Shown: positions 20,426 to 29,675 of the stretch, in pieces
Numbering within the stretch: position 1 is the stretch's first letter
Layout: every line of letters begins with the position of its first letter
Assembly: GCA_037443085.1 (NCBI GenBank)
Contig: JBBIPA010000008.1
Coordinates: forward strand, 1-54,566
Reading direction: 5' to 3'
From: Chloroflexota bacterium
Lineage (GTDB): Bacteria > Chloroflexota > Dehalococcoidia > GIF9 > UBA5629
Length of the DNA: 54,566 bases
Notes under the pieces: model-generated
What the model was told of the DNA's origin: nothing
The model's input: the letters and a program-made list of their open reading frames with translations, nothing else
Database searches by the model: none
Made by a program: the position numbers and the translations under genes

Positions 20426-23230
20426 ATGGGGACAGTATTACTGACCGGTGCCACCGGCTTTCTGGGGGCGCATATCGCTTTCCGCCTGATAACGGAAACT
20501 GACCACGACGTTATCGCTCTGGTGCGAGCCGCGAATAAGGAAACGGCGGTACGCCGCCTCAGCCGTGCCTGGTGGGACTGGCCGGAGCTGGCTCAGTCTA
20601 TCGGTGGCAGGGTCAGGGTCATTATTGGGAATGTATCTGAACCATGCCTCGGCATGAGTGACGCCGAATATAATCACCTGGTAGGCACCACCACCCATAT
20701 CATCCACACCGCCGCCGACCTGCGCCTGGAAGTGCCCATCGAGGAGCTGCGCCGGGCCAACGTTACCGGCACTGCTAATGTGCTGCAGTTAGCCCATGAT
20801 GTGCACCGGGACCATGGCCTCAGCCGTCTTTCCCATGTCTCCACTGCTTATGTGGCTGGCGGCAGGACGGGCGCAATTTCCGAAGATTCCCTCAACGATG
20901 CCTGCGGCTTTTACAGTAAATACGAGCTATCCAAATACGAAGGCGAGTTGCTTGTCCAGCAAGCCAAACAGCAACTGCCTATCTCGGTCTTCCGCCCCGG
21001 ACAGGTGGTGGGAGATTCTAAAAACGGCGCCATCAAGACTTTCAACACGCTTTATTTTCCGCTGCGGTTGTATTTGACCAAACGTCCCACCATTATCCCC
21101 GTCACCCCCTCGATGATGGTCAACATGGTACCGGTGGACTATGTAGCCGATGCCATCACCCGCCTCACTTTTATTCCCGAGGCAGCAGGGCAGAACTTTC
21201 ACCTGGTAGTGCCCTGGGAAAAGCTGCCCACCGTCGGCGAGATTATCGACTTCCTGCGCGTCTGGGCGAAACAGCATCTGGATTTGAAGCTGCCACGCCC
21301 GGTATTTCTGCCGTTGCCCGTGCCAGCCACCCGTGCCCGCTACCGGGTGCAGGGAGTGGTGAGAGGTGGCGACAAGGGTTTTCTTGCTATAGTGCCTTAT
21401 TTCAAAGAACGCCGCCGCTTTTCCCGGGAGAATATCGACCGCCTTATGGGCGCATACCATTTTCAGTGGCAAACGGTTTTCACTGCCATGATGGACTTTG
21501 CTGTTTCCAAAAGCTTCATGCACCGCTCTGAGCGCACCGTCCATGAGCAAATCCTGTTTCGACTGAGGAGCCGCAGTCTGCCAGTGACCTACTACGATAT
21601 AGTTGATAGACAAATCATCAAGCGGGACACAGTACAGGTGAGGGAAGAAATATTTGCCGTAGCCGCGGCAATGCAGGGCGCCGGCATCAGCAAGGGCGAC
21701 CGCGTTGCCCTGCTGGGGCATAACAGCAGCCGCTGGCTGGTCATCGATGTTGCCATTGGCTTGCTCGGCGCTGTCAGCGTGCCCTTATACAACACCAGCC
21801 CGCCCGCTGAAATCGCCCAGATACTCCAGGCAAGTCAGGCGAAACTGCTGTTTGTGAGCGCCCCTGATATCCTGGGGCGGCTGGATGAGCTGGCAGCCGA
21901 TACACCCGTGGTATCTTTCTGCCGCCAGAATCTTGAAGCTATGCCAGCCCGGAAAGTTATTTCCTGGGAAGAGTTTTTGGCCAGGGGCAAAGGTATCAAA
22001 GTGGCCGTCGCTGCCCCGGTAACTTTCGGTGACCTGGCCACGGTACGCTATACTTCAGGAACTACCGGACAGGTCAAGGGCGTCTGTTTCGACCATGAGG
22101 GGCTGCGCTGGATGGCGGAGACCACCTGCTCGGTGATGAACTCGTGGCGGGCGCTCAACTCCGAGATTATACACCTTTCCTACCTGCCCATGAACCACGT
22201 AGTTGAAGGCATACTGGCAAACTATTCAGCGTACTATACGCCAGCACCGGTGCATATCTACTTTGTTGAGGATATTGCTGACCTGCCCTATGCACTGCGG
22301 CGGGTTCGACCCAATATATTCTTCTCGGTGCCGCGGTTATATGAAAAAATCTGGGAATCGCTCCAGAAGACCAGCCTGGCCCGGCGTTACCAGAGCCTGA
22401 ACGAAGGGCTACGGCGGCGACTGCTGCGCACTATCCTGCGCCGGGGCGTCTTGAGAAAGGCAGGACTGAACCGCTGCGCTCAGCTTATCGTCGGTTCAGC
22501 ACCGATGAGCCAGAGCCTGCTGCGCAATTTCCAGGAGCTGGGCATCGAGATTTACAATGCCTATGGTCTTACCGAGGCGCCGCTGGTGACCATGAATAAG
22601 CTGGGGGCAAACCGGATTGATACCGTGGGTGAGTTACTGCCTGCCACCACCATTACCATCGCCGCAGACGGTGAGGTGCTGGTGAAGGGGCCGCAGGTGG
22701 CCAAAGGTTATCTGGTCGGCGATAACTGCGTGCCATTCGACGAAGGCTGGCTCCGCACCGGTGACCTGGGCTATATCAGCGAACAGAACAGCCTGGTACT
22801 CCACGGGCGTAAAAAAGAAGTTATCGTTACTTCTTACGGCAAGAACATACACCCCATCAAGATTGAGGCGATGCTGAAGAGCATCCCTGATGTCACCGAG
22901 GCTATGGTACTCGGCGATGCCCGCCCCTTCTGCACCGCTATCCTCTGGGTAAGTCGCGATGGTCATGACCTGAGCTGGGTGAGCCGGGTTGAGCAGGCTA
23001 TCATCGAGGTCAACCGTCAGCTCTCGCATCCCGAGCAGGTGAAGCGCTGGGCAATTTTGAAGAACGAGCTATCCATCGAGCGCGGCGAGTTGACCGCCAG
23101 CCTGAAACTGAAGCGCGCTGAGGTAACGCGGCGGCTTGGCGAGACGGTGGAGGCGCTGTATTCCCGGCTGACTCCTGAGTTGAATGATGGCATCTACATC
23201 AGCGGGCTGGCGCTGGAGCACGAGTCCTAG
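20426..23230 (+). CDS. Fusion of an N-terminal extended-SDR thioester/acyl-CoA reductase and a C-terminal long-chain acyl-CoA synthetase-type adenylation domain
   Basis: N-terminal half: TGATGFLG, HTAA, HVSTAYV, YELSK, RPGQVVG. C-terminal half: YTSGTTGQVKG, YLPMNH, AYGLTE, TGDLG, GRKKE, SLKLKR. Confidence 0.88.
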   Translation: MGTVLLTGATGFLGAHIAFRLITETDHDVIALVRAANKETAVRRLSRAWWDWPELAQSIGGRVRVIIGNVSEPCLGMSDAEYNHLVGTTTHIIHTAADLRLEVPIEELRRANVTGTANVLQLAHDVHRDHGLSRLSHVSTAYVAGGRTGAISEDSLNDACGFYSKYELSKYEGELLVQQAKQQLPISVFRPGQVVGDSKNGAIKTFNTLYFPLRLYLTKRPTIIPVTPSMMVNMVPVDYVADAITRLTFIPEAAGQNFHLVVPWEKLPTVGEIIDFLRVWAKQHLDLKLPRPVFLPLPVPATRARYRVQGVVRGGDKGFLAIVPYFKERRRFSRENIDRLMGAYHFQWQTVFTAMMDFAVSKSFMHRSERTVHEQILFRLRSRSLPVTYYDIVDRQIIKRDTVQVREEIFAVAAAMQGAGISKGDRVALLGHNSSRWLVIDVAIGLLGAVSVPLYNTSPPAEIAQILQASQAKLLFVSAPDILGRLDELAADTPVVSFCRQNLEAMPARKVISWEEFLARGKGIKVAVAAPVTFGDLATVRYTSGTTGQVKGVCFDHEGLRWMAETTCSVMNSWRALNSEIIHLSYLPMNHVVEGILANYSAYYTPAPVHIYFVEDIADLPYALRRVRPNIFFSVPRLYEKIWESLQKTSLARRYQSLNEGLRRRLLRTILRRGVLRKAGLNRCAQLIVGSAPMSQSLLRNFQELGIEIYNAYGLTEAPLVTMNKLGANRIDTVGELLPATTITIAADGEVLVKGPQVAKGYLVGDNCVPFDEGWLRTGDLGYISEQNSLVLHGRKKEVIVTSYGKNIHPIKIEAMLKSIPDVTEAMVLGDARPFCTAILWVSRDGHDLSWVSRVEQAIIEVNRQLSHPEQVKRWAILKNELSIERGELTASLKLKRAEVTRRLGETVEALYSRLTPELNDGIYISGLALEHES

Positions 23231-23243
23231 CCCCGGCAGTATG

Positions 23244-23319
23244 GCTATAGCTCCTCTATCTCCAGTATCCGGTCTACCCGAAATACCCTTTCCGCCTTCC
23301 GTTCCCGGCAAAAGGCTTG
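23244..23319. repeat. 76 bp direct repeat, copy 1 (orphan duplicate of the helicase-WYL gene 3' end)
   Basis: gctatagctcctctatc...caaaaggcttg; one mismatch versus 26379-26454. Confidence 0.95.
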
Positions 23320-23461
23320 AACACCCAGATACATTGTGGCCAGAGAACAATAAGCCAATCGGAACGGCTTGCCAACATTGCATCCCCTTACACCCTTCTG
23401 GGTCAGTTGACAATCTATCTGTTTTCTTTTAGAGTGAACAAATCTTACAACGTATGGAGTT

Positions 23462-25477
23462 ATGAAGATGCGCTTTTTGGTAGTACCTTTATTGATTACG
23501 TTACTTATCCTTATGGGATGTGCGCCTCAAACACAATTAACTGTGAAGCTGGCATCACCAGCACATGGTAGCGAAGTAACTTCCCTGGCCCCCATGCTGA
23601 TTTGGGGAGGTGGTGACACTACTGCGACGTACAGGTTGCTGGTAGCAGCAGACAGTAATTTTCAGAACCTGGTTATTGATGCCAGCAATCTGGGTGAACC
23701 ACGCTATACTATTCCCTCAAGGAAACTGCTCAGTGATAAGACTTATTACTGGAAGGTTATCGCCAGCAAGGGTAATGTAACCTCGGATTGGTCGTCATCA
23801 TGGTCTTTCAAGACCCCCGCTGCACCGACTCCGTCTCATGGAGGTAAAATCCGAGTTAGTGCTACAGTTGATGGTGTGCCTTGGTCTGGAGCAGTAAACT
23901 ATTCTATTACCGGTCCGTTTTCGGACACTGATAACTCATTACCATGGAATTTTGATGGTGTCCCTGCAGGGACATACACAATCACCTACAATTACGGTGC
24001 TCCAGCGGGAAAAGCATTAGCAAATGTTAGCCCGTCACCGACTCAGAATTTGCCAGATGGCGGAGTTATCAGTTTTGTACTGAACTTTTACACGCAGTCC
24101 ACTTCACAAATTGCCATTAATGCAACTCTCAATGGTACTCCCTGGTCTGGACCGATTAATTATTCCATTTCTGGACCATTCAATGATACCGAGACTCTAG
24201 TGCCCCAAACGCTCAATAGTCTGCCTACAGGTAATTACACACTAGTATATAATTATGGTGGTCCTGCTGGGGCCGCTTTGAGCAACATTACACCTGCTAC
24301 TGTTCAAACATTGACCTCCGGTGGTAGCCTTGTATATACCTTGAATTTTTCCACCAGCCCGGTGTCGAACCTCTCAGTAACTGCTTCGTTGAATGGTGCC
24401 CCATGGTCTGGGCCAATACGTTATTCTTTGTCCGGGCGGGTAAGCATTTCCCGAACTGACGTCCCCTTCCAGCTCAATAATGCTCCTGCCGGTACCTACC
24501 AAATTGTTTATGAAGGAGGTGGCCCACAGGGGGCTACTCTGGGAGGTATTACTCCAGCACAAACAATTACCCTGACCAGCGGGATATCAGGAGGATTTGT
24601 CCTCAATTTCTACACACAGCCTGTTTCTGGCAACATAGTGGTTAGTGCCACGTTGAACGGGTCGCCATGGTCCGGCGGCGTCAATTATTTTATCAGTGGT
24701 CCATTACAGAACTCTGATAACACTGTGCCACGTACATATACGAGTATACCTGCTGGGACCTATACACTCACCTATTCAGGCGGAGGTCCTGCTGGCGCTA
24801 TGCTCGCCAGCATTACGCCATCGCCGTCACAAAGGCTCGATGGAGGTCGTACTATAGCGTTTACCATGAACTTTATAACACAGCCAGGTAGCGGTACTAT
24901 CAATGTAAATGCTTTGCTTGACGGGCAACCGTGGAGAGTGGCTATAGGCTCAGGGTCTATCAACTATACCCTGATAGGGCCTAAACACGATTCCAGCACC
25001 ACAGTCCCTCAGACCTTTAGCAACATGCCTGCTGGACCATACACGTTAAATTACAATGGCGGCGGGCCGATTGGTGCCACGCTCACCAGTATTACGCCGT
25101 CACCATCACAGAACCTGTCATCGGGCGGCGCTATTACATTCACCTTAAATTTCACTGGGCAACCCAAGGGCACAGTAATCGTCAATGCCACACTCAATGG
25201 TCAGCCATGGTCAGGCCAGGTCGGCTATATAGTACAGGGCCCTTATGTCGAATCGGGGAGCTCCACGCCGCGAAACTTCACTGGCGCGCCTGCAGGGAGC
25301 TATAGCGTGCAATATAGAAGCGGTGGCCCTCCCCAGTCCATTTTTGAAGGGGTAACCCCATCCACCCAGATATTGCCTGCAGGAGGAACGATAACATTTA
25401 CCATAATGTTCAAATTCCAGGGGCTGCCTCCACAACCTCCTGCTCCGGGTCCGCTACCGGGACCGCTGGTAAAATAG
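23462..25477 (+). CDS. Surface lipoprotein: Fn3/Ig-like N-domain, six ~88 aa tandem repeats and a Pro-rich tail
   Basis: Lipobox LMGC; YYWKV.A...SDWS..WSF.T domain; six repeats of I.V.ATLNG.PWSG.VNY...GP...PAGTY...Y..GGP.GA.L..ITP...Q.L..GG.I.F.LNF. Confidence 0.8.
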   Translation: MKMRFLVVPLLITLLILMGCAPQTQLTVKLASPAHGSEVTSLAPMLIWGGGDTTATYRLLVAADSNFQNLVIDASNLGEPRYTIPSRKLLSDKTYYWKVIASKGNVTSDWSSSWSFKTPAAPTPSHGGKIRVSATVDGVPWSGAVNYSITGPFSDTDNSLPWNFDGVPAGTYTITYNYGAPAGKALANVSPSPTQNLPDGGVISFVLNFYTQSTSQIAINATLNGTPWSGPINYSISGPFNDTETLVPQTLNSLPTGNYTLVYNYGGPAGAALSNITPATVQTLTSGGSLVYTLNFSTSPVSNLSVTASLNGAPWSGPIRYSLSGRVSISRTDVPFQLNNAPAGTYQIVYEGGGPQGATLGGITPAQTITLTSGISGGFVLNFYTQPVSGNIVVSATLNGSPWSGGVNYFISGPLQNSDNTVPRTYTSIPAGTYTLTYSGGGPAGAMLASITPSPSQRLDGGRTIAFTMNFITQPGSGTINVNALLDGQPWRVAIGSGSINYTLIGPKHDSSTTVPQTFSNMPAGPYTLNYNGGGPIGATLTSITPSPSQNLSSGGAITFTLNFTGQPKGTVIVNATLNGQPWSGQVGYIVQGPYVESGSSTPRNFTGAPAGSYSVQYRSGGPPQSIFEGVTPSTQILPAGGTITFTIMFKFQGLPPQPPAPGPLPGPLVK

Positions 25478-25502
25478 CCGGATATAAAGGAGACAAAATT
25501 CA

Positions 25503-26309
25503 ATGAAAATATTGTTAGTTATAATACTTGTGGTAGCAACTACACTGACGGCATGTATGCCTTCAATCACACCGCCGGTAGCGCCAACCAAACTCCGAAT
25601 CATTACTGAGACATATCCACCATTCAACTTTGTTGATAGTAACAAAAATGTCGTTGGCAAAAGTACCGAAATTGTCGAAGCGATTTTGCAAGAGCTAGGC
25701 GCTCCCGGCATTCCTATCGAAGTAATGCCGTTGGCAGACGGCTTGAGTCTGGCGCAGAAAGGTCCTAATGTAGCGATATTCTCGATCAACAGGACTCCTC
25801 AACGCGAAACATTGTATAAATGGGTAGGCCCCATTGGGAATTACGAACAGGCATTTTATGCCAGGAAAGGCTCCAGCATAACATTGAGCAGGCTCGAGGA
25901 CGCTAAAATTGTGGGTAAGATCGGTGTCTATAAGGGCGACGCTGGGAATCAGTTTCTTACTGCACAGGGGTTTACTAATCTTGACGAGAGCTTGAACGAT
26001 GTTGAAGCGCTGAGAAAACTTATTGATAACAAGGTGCAGCTCTGGCTGGGTAACACAGAGGGATTGGAGATTACCGCCCGAGAGGCGGGGGTAAATGCTG
26101 AGGACATCATGGCTCTGCCTGTGGTAGCCATACGGGCAGGCCTCTACGTAGCTTTTAGCAAAGATGTTTCTGGCAGCACCGTGGCAGCGTGGCAAAACGC
26201 TCTCAACTCCCTGAAGCAAAAAACTGATATCGATGGCAAGACGGTCTACGATAAAATAAATGCCAGATATGATGATCCTGATTACATAAGGAGCTTGTTA
26301 CAGAAATAA
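25503..26309 (+). CDS. Family 3 (amino acid-type) extracellular solute-binding lipoprotein
   Basis: Lipobox LTAC; TETYPPFNF, RTPQRETLYKWVGP and YVAFSK; AAGGAG RBS. Confidence 0.88.
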   Translation: MKILLVIILVVATTLTACMPSITPPVAPTKLRIITETYPPFNFVDSNKNVVGKSTEIVEAILQELGAPGIPIEVMPLADGLSLAQKGPNVAIFSINRTPQRETLYKWVGPIGNYEQAFYARKGSSITLSRLEDAKIVGKIGVYKGDAGNQFLTAQGFTNLDESLNDVEALRKLIDNKVQLWLGNTEGLEITAREAGVNAEDIMALPVVAIRAGLYVAFSKDVSGSTVAAWQNALNSLKQKTDIDGKTVYDKINARYDDPDYIRSLLQK

Positions 26310-26378
26310 TCGTCTTATCGGTCAACCGTCAACCCTGACATCCTGAGCAGGCAAGCTTTGGGCAATTTTGAAGAGCGA

Positions 26379-26454
26379 GCTATAGCTCCTCTATCTCCAG
26401 TATCCGGTCTACCCGAAATACCCTTTCTGCCTTCCGTTCCCGGCAAAAGGCTTG
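26379..26454. repeat. 76 bp direct repeat, copy 2 (functional 3' end of the helicase-WYL gene)
   Basis: Matches 23244-23319 at 75/76 positions. Confidence 0.95.
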
Positions 26455-27933
26455 CAGGCCGAGATAAATGACCCCATTAAACTCCATCTCGCCGACATAG
26501 CGCGGCTCGATCACCCGTTTCGACTTCTCATCGCTGGGTTTGAGGTAGACAATGCGCAGGGCGGTGCCATGTGCTATTGCCCTTTCAATTATGGCGACCT
26601 TATCATCAACCGGGCAGGACTCTTCAGCTTTGTCATACTGGTACTTCGTCAAAAACTTCATTATCTTGTAATCTGTCCAGATATGCTTCTTGGCCAGTGG
26701 TTTCTTCAGCACAATGCCGTCCAGCCTGGTGCATCGGCTCAGGGCTACATACATCTGACCGTGGGCGAAGGTACCCCGGCCGATATCAATTATCACTTTA
26801 TCGAAGGTTTTCCCCTGGCTCTTGTGAATGGTCACCGCCCAGGCGAGCATCAGCGGATACTGGGTGAAGGTGCCCACCACCTCTGACTGTAGCTGCCCGT
26901 CCTCGATGAAAAACTTGAAAATTTCCCATACCCAGGGAGTGACCTCCACCGCTTCACCGTTGGCCAGCTCCACGAATAGCACCGGCGTGCTGTCCCGCTC
27001 GATGGCTACGGCGGCGATTTTGCCTATGGTGCCGTTTACCCAGCGCCGGCTGCCGTCGTTGGTGAGCATCATAATCTGCGCTCCAGCCTTTACCTTCAGC
27101 TCTACTGCCGTGGGCAGATACTCCTTGCCGAACTCCCCGTCGATTCTGCCGTTGAAGGTATACAGCGTGCCGTCGAGCTTATCCAGTTGCTGGTTGTTAA
27201 TGCGTTCCGCCATCTCATTGGTGGTGGTCAAATACACGTAAAAATCATCCAGGGGCGGCTCATAGTCATGCAGGTATCGCTGGTTAAGCAGCGCCAGCCC
27301 TTCTTCGGTGATGGTATTATTGCGGATGGCATTGAGCAGGCTGATGAACTGGTCGTCATGCTGCCGGTAAATCTTCTCCAGCTCGATAAATTCCATGTCC
27401 AGGCGGTCGAAGGCACTGGAGCTGAAAAAGTAAGGCGTTTCATAAATAGCAGAAAATGCCTGCCGCTCTTCGCCGCTCAGCACCGGCGGCAACTGGTAAA
27501 GATCGCCGACGAACAACATCTGAATGCCGCCGAAAGGTTTTCTCTTATCGGGACCGTGCAGCCGCAAGAAGGTATCCACGCAGTCGAGCAAATCAGCCCG
27601 CACCATGGAGATTTCGTCAATGAGAATGGCGTCCAGTTGCTTGTAGATGGAGCGCTCGCTATCACTCCGCCGCAGCTTCCTCACCTTCTCCACGGTCACA
27701 TCGGGCTTAAATTTGAAGAAGGAGTGGATGGTCTGTCCTTTCACGTTCAGCGCTGCCACGCCGGTGGGAGCCAGCACCACCACCTTCTTATTGGTGTTGT
27801 TGCGGAAGTAATCGAGCAGCGTTGACTTGCCCGTCCCTGCCCTACCGGTGACAAAGACGTGCTTGACGGTATGCTCCATCATCTCCAGCGCCTGATGGAA
27901 CTGCTCGTTGATTTCTATGGGGGTATTAGGCAC
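26380..27933 (-). CDS. PIF1/RecD-like SF1B helicase with a C-terminal WYL domain
   Basis: GRAGTGKS, APTGVAA, DEISMV, GDLYQLPP and AWAVTIHKSQGKT; the C-terminus reads I.Y......R.IEP....AFC..RKAERVFRVDRI (WYL). The likely GTG start at 27933 is coupled to the upstream small ORF. Confidence 0.88.
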   Translation of the reverse strand: MPNTPIEINEQFHQALEMMEHTVKHVFVTGRAGTGKSTLLDYFRNNTNKKVVVLAPTGVAALNVKGQTIHSFFKFKPDVTVEKVRKLRRSDSERSIYKQLDAILIDEISMVRADLLDCVDTFLRLHGPDKRKPFGGIQMLFVGDLYQLPPVLSGEERQAFSAIYETPYFFSSSAFDRLDMEFIELEKIYRQHDDQFISLLNAIRNNTITEEGLALLNQRYLHDYEPPLDDFYVYLTTTNEMAERINNQQLDKLDGTLYTFNGRIDGEFGKEYLPTAVELKVKAGAQIMMLTNDGSRRWVNGTIGKIAAVAIERDSTPVLFVELANGEAVEVTPWVWEIFKFFIEDGQLQSEVVGTFTQYPLMLAWAVTIHKSQGKTFDKVIIDIGRGTFAHGQMYVALSRCTRLDGIVLKKPLAKKHIWTDYKIMKFLTKYQYDKAEESCPVDDKVAIIERAIAHGTALRIVYLKPSDEKSKRVIEPRYVGEMEFNGVIYLGLQAFCRERKAERVFRVDRILEIEEL

Positions 27934-27934
27934 T

Positions 27935-28114
27935 CTATCCCCATCTGCCGGCGAGTATCTTCGCCAGGCGCTTATAGCCAGCGGAGGACACCCACTTTTT
28001 GGCCCACTCTTCAATGGCCTGAACACCATCGGGATACTGCTCTCTTATTTTTTCAATTTCAAGTGATGCCTCATTAGCGGCATCATCCATTTTCTTGGCG
28101 TCGAATTCTGGCAT
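27935..28114 (-). CDS. Small hypothetical protein (59 aa, absent from the ORF track)
   Basis: MPEFDAKKMDDAANEASLEIEKIREQYPDGVQAIEEWAKKWVSSAGYKRLAKILAGRWG; strong AGGAGG RBS; the stop lies 1 nt before the helicase GTG. Confidence 0.75.
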   Translation of the reverse strand: MPEFDAKKMDDAANEASLEIEKIREQYPDGVQAIEEWAKKWVSSAGYKRLAKILAGRWG

Positions 28115-28167
28115 CTCTTTCCTCCTACTCTATATATTAGCAGTTTGTTAGCAAGGGCGATGAGTCG

Positions 28168-29039
28168 AATGGTGAGCGGCGCTGTACAATACGCAGAACC
28201 AAAACATTCGAATCTAGCTTCGAATTAGCGAAATAAAGTTAGCAAATACTAATAGACCAGACTGGCTAGTATTTTGAATTCCGTCTGTGATTCGGTTACA
28301 GCTTTATATTTAGGTGGAAAGGTATTTTCATATTTTTGAAAACCATCCTCATCCACTTTAAAAACTTCGCTTTCAATAAACCTGCCAGATATTTTACGGA
28401 GAGTTCCCGGTGCTAGTTCAATGGCCATAAGTGCCACAGCGAATTTACCTTCGGAATTGGTTATATCATATCTTTCGGCACATCTGAATCCGAATCTGTT
28501 ATAATATCTTGGGTTCCCATAAATAAGGACGGCTGTAAAGCCGAGGTACTTTGCTTTATCCAACGAGTATTTGATTAGAGCGCTGCCGATGCCCTGTCTT
28601 TGATAAGTGGGCAATACGCTTACTGGTCCGAAGCTGATGACCTTGTATGTTTCCCCTGTGGCATTGATTAGTTTACCGTGAGTGTACACAATATTTCCCA
28701 CCAGTTTCCCATTAAGTTCAGCAACAAAATCCAACTCGGAAATAAAATCACTACTGCTACGCATATTATGCAAACAATAATGTTCACTGCACCCAGGAAC
28801 ATATAGATTCCAAAATGCTTCGCGAGTCAATTCTTCAACCGCTCTGTATTCATTTGTTTGTTCATTTCGAATTATCAAATTCATTTTTTTCACCAAGACA
28901 CGCTGGGGGAAACACTCCTAAGCTTGAAATTATATCACGTGGAATGACAGAGAAAGAAATAGTTATTCAATAAATGATTCAGATGATAATCTCGAAGAGG
29001 TTTTGTCTATTGTACAGTACTGTTATATCGAGCCTGAAA
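28168..29039. mobile_element. Putative non-autonomous single-gene islet integrated at the tRNA-Val(TAC) 3' end
   Basis: Degenerate tRNA 3'-end copy at 28168-28184 (12/17 identity) and a 16/19 inverted repeat pair (28182-28200 / 28999-29017) around an AT-rich GNAT gene. Confidence 0.55.
28249..28884 (-). CDS. GNAT family N-acetyltransferase (YhbS-like)
   Basis: IIRNE...VEELTREAFWN...GCSEH, GPVSVLPTYQRQGIGSALI and YYNRFGF; visibly AT-richer than its flanks. Confidence 0.9.
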   Translation of the reverse strand: MNLIIRNEQTNEYRAVEELTREAFWNLYVPGCSEHYCLHNMRSSSDFISELDFVAELNGKLVGNIVYTHGKLINATGETYKVISFGPVSVLPTYQRQGIGSALIKYSLDKAKYLGFTAVLIYGNPRYYNRFGFRCAERYDITNSEGKFAVALMAIELAPGTLRKISGRFIESEVFKVDEDGFQKYENTFPPKYKAVTESQTEFKILASLVY

Positions 29040-29115
29040 TGGTGGGCAATACTGGATTTGAACCAGTGACCTCCTGTGTGTAAGACAGGCGCTCTAACCG
29101 CTGAGCTAATCGCCC
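29040..29115 (-). tRNA. tRNA-Val(TAC)
   Basis: GGGCGATTAGCTCAGCGG...anticodon arm CCTGT-CTTACAC-ACAGG...GGTTCAAATCC...GCCCACCA. Confidence 0.95.
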
Positions 29116-29120
29116 CTAAA

Positions 29121-29197
29121 TGGCACGCCTGGTGGGATTTGAACCCACGGCCTCAGCCTCCGCAGGGCTGCGCTCTAATCCCCTGAGCTACAGGCGC
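29121..29197 (-). tRNA. tRNA-Arg(GCG)
   Basis: GCGCCTGTAGCTCAGGGGATTAGAGC, anticodon arm CAGCC-CTGCGGA-GGCTG, GGTTCAAATCC and an encoded CCA. Confidence 0.93.
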
Positions 29198-29199
29198 AT

Positions 29200-29286
29200 T
29201 GGTGCCGAAGGTGAGATTTGAACTCACACATCCTGTACGGATACTACGCCCTGAACGTAGCGCGTCTGCCATTCCGCCACTTCGGC
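29200..29286 (-). tRNA. tRNA-Leu(CAG)
   Basis: GCCGAAGTGGCGGAATGG, anticodon arm CTACG-TTCAGGG-CGTAG, long variable arm and an encoded CCA. Confidence 0.95.
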
Positions 29287-29287
29287 G

Positions 29288-29360
29288 TGGGCAGTACTGG
29301 ATTTGAACCAGTGGCCTCTTGCGTGTGAAGCAAGCGCTCTAACCGCTGAGCTAACCGCCC
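29288..29360 (-). tRNA. tRNA-Val(CAC)
   Basis: GGGCGGTTAGCTCAGCGG, anticodon arm CTTGC-TTCACAC-GCAAG and GGTTCAAATCC. CCA is not encoded; it lies 1 nt from tRNA-Leu. Confidence 0.94.
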
Positions 29361-29372
29361 CAAAGCATATCT

Positions 29373-29401
29373 ATTTTAGTCGGAAACATCGGCTTTGTAA
29401 A
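29373..29401 (-). promoter_or_regulatory. Sigma70-type promoter of the tRNA operon
   Basis: Minus-strand TTTACA-N17-TAAAAT, ending 12 nt upstream of tRNA-Val(CAC). Confidence 0.65.
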
Positions 29402-29424
29402 ACGGAGAAGCGATATTTGGGCAA

Positions 29425-29534
29425 CAGGCTGTCTGAAAATCACAATCGTAAGGTACTCGCGGGTTCCCATTGAGCCCGCGGGATCGTCACGCGCTTCGCG
29501 CTCACGATGACAATTTCTATTTTTAGATAGCCTG
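29425..29534. mobile_element. 110 bp MITE-like element (family C)
   Basis: Terminal inverted repeats caggctgtctgaaaat / atttttagatagcctg (14/16). The internal gatcgtcacgcgcttcgcgctcacgatgac is related to 42249-42290. Confidence 0.5.
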
Positions 29535-29675
29535 GTGGCAATCTTTGTTTATTCGTTCATACGTTACTTGTCCGCGCATCACCGACAGGTTATACTGAAC
29601 CTGCTGCTGGCACCTTATAGGGTCATTCTTTTTACCGAAGTTTATAAGGCAGCATAGCAGCAGCGAGCGTTACTG

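Follow-up and report, generated by a model that had tools for sequence, protein, structure and literature searches.

A single-gene unit at a tRNA-Val gene, probably a recombinase-less mini-island from a serine-recombinase element family of Dehalococcoidia

How does a single cargo gene come to lie between split, attachment-like repeats at the 3′ end of a tRNA gene with no recombinase beside it? The question is raised by a 54,566-nt stretch of contig JBBIPA010000008.1 from a Chloroflexota bacterium (assembly GCA_037443085.1, completeness 94.6%), here called the window, to which all coordinates refer unless a contig or locus is named. In it, a gene for a GNAT-family acetyltransferase (hereafter GNAT) stands downstream of tRNA-Val(TAC), and a preliminary description had proposed that the gene forms a non-autonomous cassette or deletion relic, mobilised in trans in an integron-like way. 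Our analysis indicates that positions 28170-29039 are likely to be an ~870-bp mini-island at the tRNA-Val(TAC) 3′ end that has no gene for a large serine recombinase (LSR) and derives from an LSR-driven element family of Dehalococcoidia. The reading in the preliminary description is correct in its essentials, with the integron-like aspect weakly supported.

The repeats on which the preliminary description was built were recovered as reported. Its direct repeat (28168-28184 against 29038-29054, spacing 870) is matched at 12/17 positions, with all 5 mismatches being transitions, and its inverted repeat (28182-28200 with 28999-29017) is complementary at 16/19. The true extent of the inverted arms is 23 nt each, at 28178-28200 and 28999-29021. 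The AT-rich GNAT gene is the sole substantial open reading frame (ORF) between the repeats, and the two edge peptides are exact: the + strand reads DDNLEEVLSIVQYCYIEPEMVG from 28982 and, from 28168, NGERRCTIRRTKTFESSFELAK followed by a stop codon. An inverted repeat of this quality is uncommon by chance, as only 3/300 dinucleotide shuffles gave a 16/19 pair whose arms were separated by 500 nt or more. The decisive support for the repeats is comparative rather than statistical, and comes from a survey of the arm motif and from an intact recombinase.

Attachment half-sites and recombinase tails

The intact recombinase was found in the complete genome G094 (locus L168; our handles mark other genomes with G, contigs with C, and loci with L). 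There, tRNA-Val(CAC) is faced on the opposite strand by an intact 525-aa LSR ending in EERIGVLPIVQYGGQ (GVLPIVQYGGQ, then stop). The last codons of this gene are the arm sequence and directly abut the antisense tRNA 3′ end, while a partner arm followed by GCCCACCA lies ~36 kb away. We found 360 homologues of this protein that carry the domains Resolvase (PF00239), Recombinase (PF07508), and zinc ribbon (PF13408); the best one with a name, at 90% identity, is listed as a serine recombinase of Dehalococcoides mccartyi. Among the homologues listed, most C-termini read VLPIVQYGG(R/Q) before the stop, where a short stretch of antisense-tRNA residues comes after the GG. In a small number of homologues, there is an alternative tail of the GGRY.TIDRTF type (...VLSIVHDGGRYRTIDRTFKLAFSLAI, ...GGRYRTIDRTFKLAF..., and ...GGRYRTIDRTFKLAFSLAI), which matches the left edge of the window unit and is the tail encoded by the P half. 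Likewise, related LSR genes overlap tRNA-Asn (L169), tRNA-Ala (L170), and the tmRNA gene (L171).

The edges of the window unit can be set against this family base by base. At the tRNA-proximal edge, the tRNA-Val(TAC) 3′ end (29040-29065) would be the B half of the attachment site, and an 18-nt spacer (29022-29039) separates its CCA end from the P′ arm (28999-29021), with which it would form an attL of a long-spacer type. The P′ arm, which is the right arm of the inverted repeat, has 3 mismatches against the commonest family form, and its + strand codes VLSIVQY where the family has VLPIVQY. It falls in a remnant of ~13 terminal LSR codons (28982-29020, + strand; DDNLEEVLSIVQY versus LEERIGVLPIVQY) that is homologous to the intact LSR end in L168. 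As expected of an attL, this edge therefore shows homology to the P′ half, the 3′ end of the LSR gene in autonomous members.

The distal edge has the composition of an attR, a P half (inverted arm) and then the shared core. The core (28168-28177) is a pseudo tRNA-Val acceptor end, reading GCTCACCATT on the minus strand versus GCCCACCA in the family. The P arm (28178-28200), the left arm of the inverted repeat, belongs to a GCGTATTG subtype also present in G094 and G058. Between this arm and the GNAT stop (28201-28248), the + strand reads KTFESSFELAK and a stop, the end of the LSR tail frame, which over the left edge as a whole runs NGERRCTIRRTKTF versus GGRYLTIDRTKTF of the family; corresponding segments beside P arms in other genomes, read by eye from the DNA, give ...RTRTFELTFR in the same frame. 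Since both edges match LSR half-sites and tails, they appear to be the P′ and P halves of an attP: the right edge is best read as the P′ half, a remnant of the last LSR codons, and the left edge as the P half, the tail that an LSR would carry in the excised form.

A joined form of the two halves exists in the metagenome locus L123, where a full junction (P′-core-P) translates as VLSIVQYRYYEAINGGRYLTIDRTKTFELAFTI with no stop before the terminal one. Superposing the repeat copies of the window leaves the two edge peptides one base out of frame; the window spacer is 1 nt shorter than that of L123, whose frame is open across the junction. The tail VLSIV..GG..CT..RTF, which the preliminary description had given for Dehalococcoidia recombinases, is thus real, being borne out by the LSR end in L168, the database LSR tails, and the open junction in L123.

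Three other readings of the junction were dropped. A Xer/dif-like or attC-like hairpin and a tRNA-like structured RNA were both abandoned because the arm turned out to code for the end of the LSR, and hairpin covariation beside the P arm was rejected as the window merely has a 12-nt duplication there. The upstream junction of L123 lacks this ~12-nt tandem duplication (28205-28232; minus strand, GCTAATTCGAA / GCTAGATTCGAA), which gives rise to a 6-bp TTCGAA hairpin in the window.

These features suggest a route by which the unit could have formed. In autonomous members, the LSR gene would occupy the end nearest the tRNA and converge with it, the last LSR codons (VLPIVQY-GG) serving as the P′ half, and the P half would consist of a 23-nt inverted copy of the arm and then the pseudo acceptor end GCCCACCA. 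In the excised circle, the P half would supply an alternative C-terminal tail to the LSR. Integration at the GCCCACCA end of a tRNA gene would split attP into attL (tRNA plus P′) and attR (P plus core plus host flank). At the window locus, an internal deletion would then have removed the LSR save for ~13 terminal codons, leaving GNAT and its own upstream region between the half-sites. Given how LSR att sites are generally built, we infer that the arms are LSR binding half-sites, and because homology among copies of the unit stops within or just past the core, the crossover would fall within the shared GCC|CA of the tRNA acceptor end. A cognate LSR acting in trans with a directionality factor could excise such a unit.

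Copies of the unit and reach of the arm motif

Close homologues of GNAT were found in 13 metagenome loci, two of which contain the unit from edge to edge. L129 aligns to window 29064-28187 at 87% identity and L123 to 29056-28173 at 79%; in both, the match begins within the tRNA 3′ end, spans the two arms, and halts at the left site, and neither has an intact tRNA. In a three-way alignment of the window with these loci, the P′ arm is 91% identical in all pairs, the coding sequence 83-89%, and the P arm 78-87%, whereas the adjacent 3′ untranslated region (UTR) falls to 54-72%, the UTRs overall to 52-81%, and everything outside to 14-32%. The long spacer is also conserved (74-89%). The host DNA beyond the left edge of the window unit, which would be the B′ flank (28115-28167), is unrelated to the flanks of L129 and L123 (23-30% identity). 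The L123 unit is preceded by a further arm with GCCCACCA, which makes a complete palindromic junction, and ahead of the L129 unit there are 25 nt similar to the 3′ end of a tRNA-Val gene. The ~870-bp unit thus occurs in three flanking contexts. A contig from another study, ~92% identical, crosses the left border (27701-28491), so a relative has the insertion too, which is thus not very recent.

Other copies of the gene raise the possibility that the unit is instead a remnant of a tyrosine-integrase island, in which case the direct repeat would be a decayed att core and the inverted repeat incidental. In L130 (58-1877), tRNA-Ala(TGC) is followed by a 349-aa tyrosine integrase (PF00589, 1.6e-27) and then by a GNAT 76% identical to ours, so the same cargo gene also rides a tyrosine-integrase element. 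In L126 and L135, GNAT lies between 46-47-nt repeats of a tRNA-Met 3′ half, downstream of an intact tRNA-Met and within arrays of 0.6-1.5-kb units. In L132, a single repeat of this kind separates tRNA-Met from GNAT, and in L133 the DNA downstream of GNAT includes 21 nt of the same T-arm. These tRNA-Met(CAT) repeats begin in the anticodon loop and are of the long kind typical of tyrosine integrases, and no recombinase was found within the 3-kb flanks of the four loci. The GNAT unit in the tRNA-Met arrays retains degenerate LSR arms and a Val-like tRNA end. In the same-genus genome G001 (C5:216417-231312, L034/L035), two tandem recombinase-less islands of ~9.8 and ~4.7 kb, carrying molybdopterin oxidoreductases and a TRAP transporter, lie at tRNA-Val(TAC) between ~50-nt repeats of the tRNA 3′ half that start in the anticodon stem. 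As these islands lack LSR arms, they were probably made by another integrase type, and the tRNA-Val 3′ end is an integration hotspot. For the window unit itself, a tyrosine-integrase origin is very unlikely: its direct repeat matches at merely 12/17 with no long block of identity, both edges fit LSR half-sites and tail coding, and the upstream region of L130 contains no arm. The own genome has a single PF00589 match, at C13:15085-15612.

Scanning related genomes for the arm, as the preliminary description had proposed, showed that the LSR-type arm is widespread and bounds other cargo. We searched 401 genomes, sampled evenly at class level, for the 23-nt arm with at most 3 mismatches, using the reversed pattern as a control. 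The arm was present in 27 genomes (39 matches), and the reversed control gave 0. At 23 of 34 distinct sites, the arm is followed by a GCCCA-like sequence (arm plus GCCCACCA, then unrelated DNA), but only 2 of these 23 P-type sites have an inverted arm within 75 nt and so form full P-P′ junctions. Cargo between arms includes a glyoxalase, methyltransferases, a TetR-ABC transporter, a MazF-like toxin, and a primase domain assigned to TOTE. The long-spacer attL recurs in L129, L123, L157, and L141, the last after tRNA-Val(GAC) of G284, whereas in G094 (L168) and G413 (L159) the arm directly adjoins the tRNA CCA end with no spacer. Two further LSR-less units have both halves: in L159, tRNA-Val(CAC) is followed by P′ and an LSR remnant, with a P site 2.1 kb on, and the second unit of L157 spans 617 nt and holds a glyoxalase gene. 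At L164 (G202:C19:164843-168607), tRNA-Asn is followed at 150 nt by an arm with GTCCACCA, and another arm lies 3.7 kb further along. Between the two arms are a gene for a MazF/PemK-like toxin, a ResIII fragment, and an AEP primase domain that belongs to the TOTE conflict system in Pfam.

Recombinase genes were not seen near these sites: no serine or tyrosine recombinase occurred among 37 ORFs within 1.5 kb of 18 motif loci in other genomes, and no recombinase among 19 ORFs inside five arm-delimited islands. An Rfam search of 7 motif loci returned only tRNAs and noise below threshold. In the own genome, the arm scan gave chance-level matches only, at 4 or more mismatches, and the family form of the arm found the two window arms and one 6-mismatch match.

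A single-gene unit edged by a 16/19 inverted repeat could also suggest a passenger derived from an insertion sequence (IS), such as a miniature inverted-repeat transposable element (MITE) or a mobile insertion cassette, moved by a transposase through terminal inverted repeats, and one motif locus, L145, does lie beside an IS110-family transposase. That gene is, however, the only transposase among the 37 ORFs around the 18 loci. The outer ends of the inverted repeat show no target-site duplication, the genome holds no other copy of the arm, and the subterminal arms fall on the coding ends of LSR genes. We consider the chance of an IS-derived origin to be slight in the extreme.

Several observations weigh against descent from the LSR family. 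The direct repeat is near chance level, as 22/300 dinucleotide shuffles of 28100-29030 hold a 17-mer with at least 12 matches to the tRNA end. Both the attR core of the window (GCTCACCA) and its P arm (5 mismatches against the commonest form) diverge from the family. No tail with an 18-19-nt (6-codon) long spacer was present among those read from the 120 LSR C-termini listed, in which VQY runs straight into GG, and a scan of viral contigs for the DNA of such a tail gave 0 matches; the exact cognate recombinase subtype is therefore unseen. Finally, L162 (G357:C98:4596-9039) has three same-strand P-type arms, 3.2 and 1.2 kb apart and without P′ arms, and one of the intervals holds an RsgA GTPase, a housekeeping-looking gene unexpected as island cargo. 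Given such genes between some P sites, not every arm bounds obviously mobile DNA.

The cargo gene and its surroundings

The GNAT ORF spans 28249-28896 on the minus strand. As most homologues have 211 aa, ATG 28884 is the probable true start, placing the cargo gene at 28249-28884; an alternative TTG start at 28896 would add 4 residues. The protein matched Acetyltransf_7, _9, and _1 with E values of 3.5e-10 to 1.1e-9 and bit scores all above the cut-offs (PF13508, 40.6 against 27; PF13527, 39.6 against 25; PF00583, 39.1 against 20.7). Homologues numbered 2438 at E≤1e-3, with identity up to 91%, and are spread across Chloroflexota, Firmicutes, archaea, and others; some source databases label close ones “predicted N-acetyltransferase YhbS”. 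The upstream region (28885-28998) contains a conserved TGTGATATAAT-like stretch, recognised in the alignment of the three copies as a possible extended -10, and a promoter at this block is possible, though a sigma-70 consensus scan of 28100-29120 returned 0 sites. A single-protein query of genome contigs confirmed no related locus, whereas an alignment-based query returned 80 loci, with 64% identity for the best of them. In a scan of the 60 best GTDB GNAT loci, tRNA-Val was near none and any tRNA was near 4.

The gene appears to be a foreign acquisition, as judged from composition and from relatives. GC content is 0.37-0.43 over 28050-29100, compared with 0.49-0.56 on either side and 0.498 in the genome. 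Any match to GNAT was found in 13/41 genomes including the own one, the closest among 40 relatives being only 37% identical, and the flanks of the tRNA cluster are not shared. The same data bear on the suggestion that chance repeats happen to surround a native, vertically inherited GNAT. The direct repeat at near-chance level and the sheer frequency of GNAT genes would fit this suggestion. Against it stand the GC dip, the lack of a GNAT orthologue in the 40 relatives, the arm motif in 27 genomes versus 0 for the control, and the sharp borders of the unit in L129 and L123. On these comparisons, a chance origin is already contradicted by the arm survey, the L168 LSR, and the three-way alignment, and we give it almost no weight.

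The target gene is the last of a four-tRNA cluster on the minus strand, in which ARAGORN placed tRNA-Val(CAC) at 29287-29360, tRNA-Leu at 29200-29286, tRNA-Arg at 29121-29197, and tRNA-Val(TAC) at 29040-29115, the last also scoring 74 bits against the Rfam tRNA model. The cluster was detected in 25/25 relatives searched, and its flanks differ even among genomes of the same genus. Beyond the island, the putative B′ flank stands upstream of two coding frames, a minus-strand ORF of 59 aa (27935-28114) and the gene of a PIF1-WYL helicase (26380-28029). In G001, the helicase gene is on another contig, beside a homologue of window 20426-23230. In the window, the 3′ end of the helicase gene recurs at a distance of ~3 kb as a 90-nt copy (23248-23337; 90% identity to residues 520-549), and this duplication bounds a stretch (23338-26379) that encodes a 671-aa repeat protein and an SBP_bac_3 protein. 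The stretch looks like an insertion relative to G001, where the 20426-23230 homologue and the helicase gene adjoin.

Recombinase supply, mobility, and known systems

The claim that the unit is a non-autonomous cassette or deletion relic agrees with the gene content of both the unit and the genome. GNAT is the only ORF between the half-sites (ORF list and Pfam), so the unit contains no recombinase that would make it autonomous, and no intact LSR of the tRNA-Val type was found in the own assembly. Two other LSR genes were identified there. On contig C12 (29439-30011), a truncated LSR, the C-terminal ~190 aa, runs antisense over tRNA-Val(GAC) and ends ...ESIGVPHIVHYGGQYWTRTSDLCDVNATL before its stop; no distal arm for this remnant (C12:29420-30011) was found on that contig, and it is a second decayed LSR element in this genome. 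On C75 (3-1704), an apparently intact LSR, a 560-codon frame from the contig edge, runs antisense into tRNA-Glu(CTC), has the tail ...VRVLPFIQDGSAYRIRTGDLVLERDAS, then stop, and is 47% identical to the tRNA-Val LSR of G094. Among other arm-bearing genomes, G284 and G357 have no LSR at E≤1e-10, G413 and G389 each have one distant full-length LSR frame (27-28% identical) and an LSR fragment, and G048 has a 183-aa N-terminal piece. LSR fragments of graded length adjoin tRNAs in C12, L159, and G413:C10.

Whether an LSR once moved the unit in trans is less certain, and we regard past mobilisation of this kind as a fair conjecture that falls somewhat short of probable. In its favor, one deletion derivative occurs in three contexts with arms better conserved than the neighboring non-coding DNA, and other two-halved, LSR-less units exist (the 2.1-kb L159 unit with its LSR remnant and the 617-nt unit of L157). 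The differing contexts could also be explained by accretion of newer islands at the tRNA or by hitch-hiking in other islands. No empty site was found in the own genome or the loci examined, where the flanks of L129, L123, and L124 matched only at the level of paralogues. Nor did contigs of four public runs show, over 27500-29600, a joint skipping 28170-29039 or a circle junction, although rare variants are lost from such contigs, which are silent on excision. Mobilisation in trans, as put forward in the preliminary description, is therefore plausible from the three flank contexts, and the excision joint and empty site that would go with it were not found. The unit is most likely now fixed in this genome, because the assembly has no intact tRNA-Val LSR and the attR core has acquired extra substitutions.

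A stronger form of the idea is a dedicated integron-like system, in which Dehalococcoidia tRNA-Val ends, together with the tRNA-like ends of units already inserted, capture small single-gene cassettes with a split attP, moved by LSRs encoded elsewhere, and in which the GNAT unit is active. Such a system would account for the same ~870-bp unit with borders at the att core in three contexts, for the conservation of its arms, for the full P-P′ junctions between units in L123 and L157, and for the short LSR-less units, including six inter-site intervals without a recombinase at Pfam E≤1e-5. The GNAT gene between tRNA-Met repeats in the unit arrays of L126 and L135, and beside one such repeat in L132, would also fit. 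However, inverted arms near P-type sites are as rare as stated above, most arrays follow a P...P...P pattern without P′ arms, as expected of decayed tandem islands, and the own genome has neither a further arm nor a cognate intact LSR. The graded LSR fragments at tRNAs indicate erosion in situ, and the upstream contexts can differ through accretion or hitch-hiking. We therefore judge both the capture system and an active role of the GNAT unit in it to be unlikely.

The likeness to integron cassettes extends to single-gene units, with or without a promoter, an imperfect palindromic site, stacking at a primary site, and a recombinase outside the unit. In attC sites, the R″ and R′ boxes read RYYYAAC ... 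GTTRRRY. The junction palindrome of our family, GGTTCTG...CAGAACC, has the opposite polarity to this consensus, with which we compared it by eye. Other differences are that no IntI-type integrase adjoins the window unit, full junctions are rare, and the site doubles as recombinase coding sequence. The term integron-like from the preliminary description is thus weakly supported: full P-P′ junctions are few, and by eye the site does not match the attC consensus.

Several implications follow for the Dehalococcoidia. The analysis gives a base-level anatomy of a tRNA-Val LSR att system, with two 23-nt inverted arms around a pseudo acceptor end, and with a recombinase frame that crosses the site such that integrated and excised forms would code different C-termini. 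It suggests that LSR islands can shrink to one cargo gene and yet keep both half-sites, helps to annotate the many recombinase-less orphan arms in the sampled genomes, and points to natural attP/attB pairs for serine-integrase tools. It also frames the question of whether such mini-units still move in trans; if the tRNA-Val capture system were real, it would be a serine-recombinase analogue of the integron, whose site doubles as a switchable C-terminal end of the LSR.

We found no paper describing single-gene units flanked by LSR att sites in open-access full text, which is not proof that none is in print. Known systems resemble the unit in part. The concept of the cis-mobilizable element (CIME) is cited in an account of Dehalococcoides islands (PMC3146451). 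The window unit has both att sites of one integrative family and no recombination or transfer genes, and is like a CIME in being flanked by attL and attR without those functions; CIMEs are thought to be born by deletion and to move with, or by means of, a related autonomous element. Classical (streptococcal) CIMEs depend on a tyrosine integrase and are several kb long, whereas the window unit has LSR half-sites and one gene. Islands at tRNA-Val in Dehalococcoides strain 195, as mentioned by McMurdie 2009 (PMC2764846), share the class of target gene and the bacterial group, and in that mention they are whole islands with integrases, in contrast to our LSR-less unit.

The closest parallel is the ssrA locus of Dehalococcoides, described by McMurdie 2011 (PMC3146451) as holding tandem serine-recombinase islands bounded by a 20-bp repeat. 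In that description, the 540-aa serine recombinase DsiB lies beside attL on the reverse strand, with the repeat embedded in its gene, a six-gene integration module includes DsiA, ParB, and Mom, and islands without such modules are proposed to be cis-mobilizable elements (PMC3146451). As far as that account goes, the two systems agree in the position of the LSR at attL on the reverse strand, in a repeat of the target 3′ end inside the recombinase gene, and in tandem islands with short target-3′-end repeats, some of which have no recombinase; in our set, the L171 LSR likewise abuts the tmRNA gene. They differ in that the window target is tRNA-Val, the unit is a single gene of ~0.87 kb rather than multi-kb, and both halves are kept as 23-nt arms. 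We therefore see the unit as a modest extension of the known ssrA and tRNA islands of Dehalococcoides.

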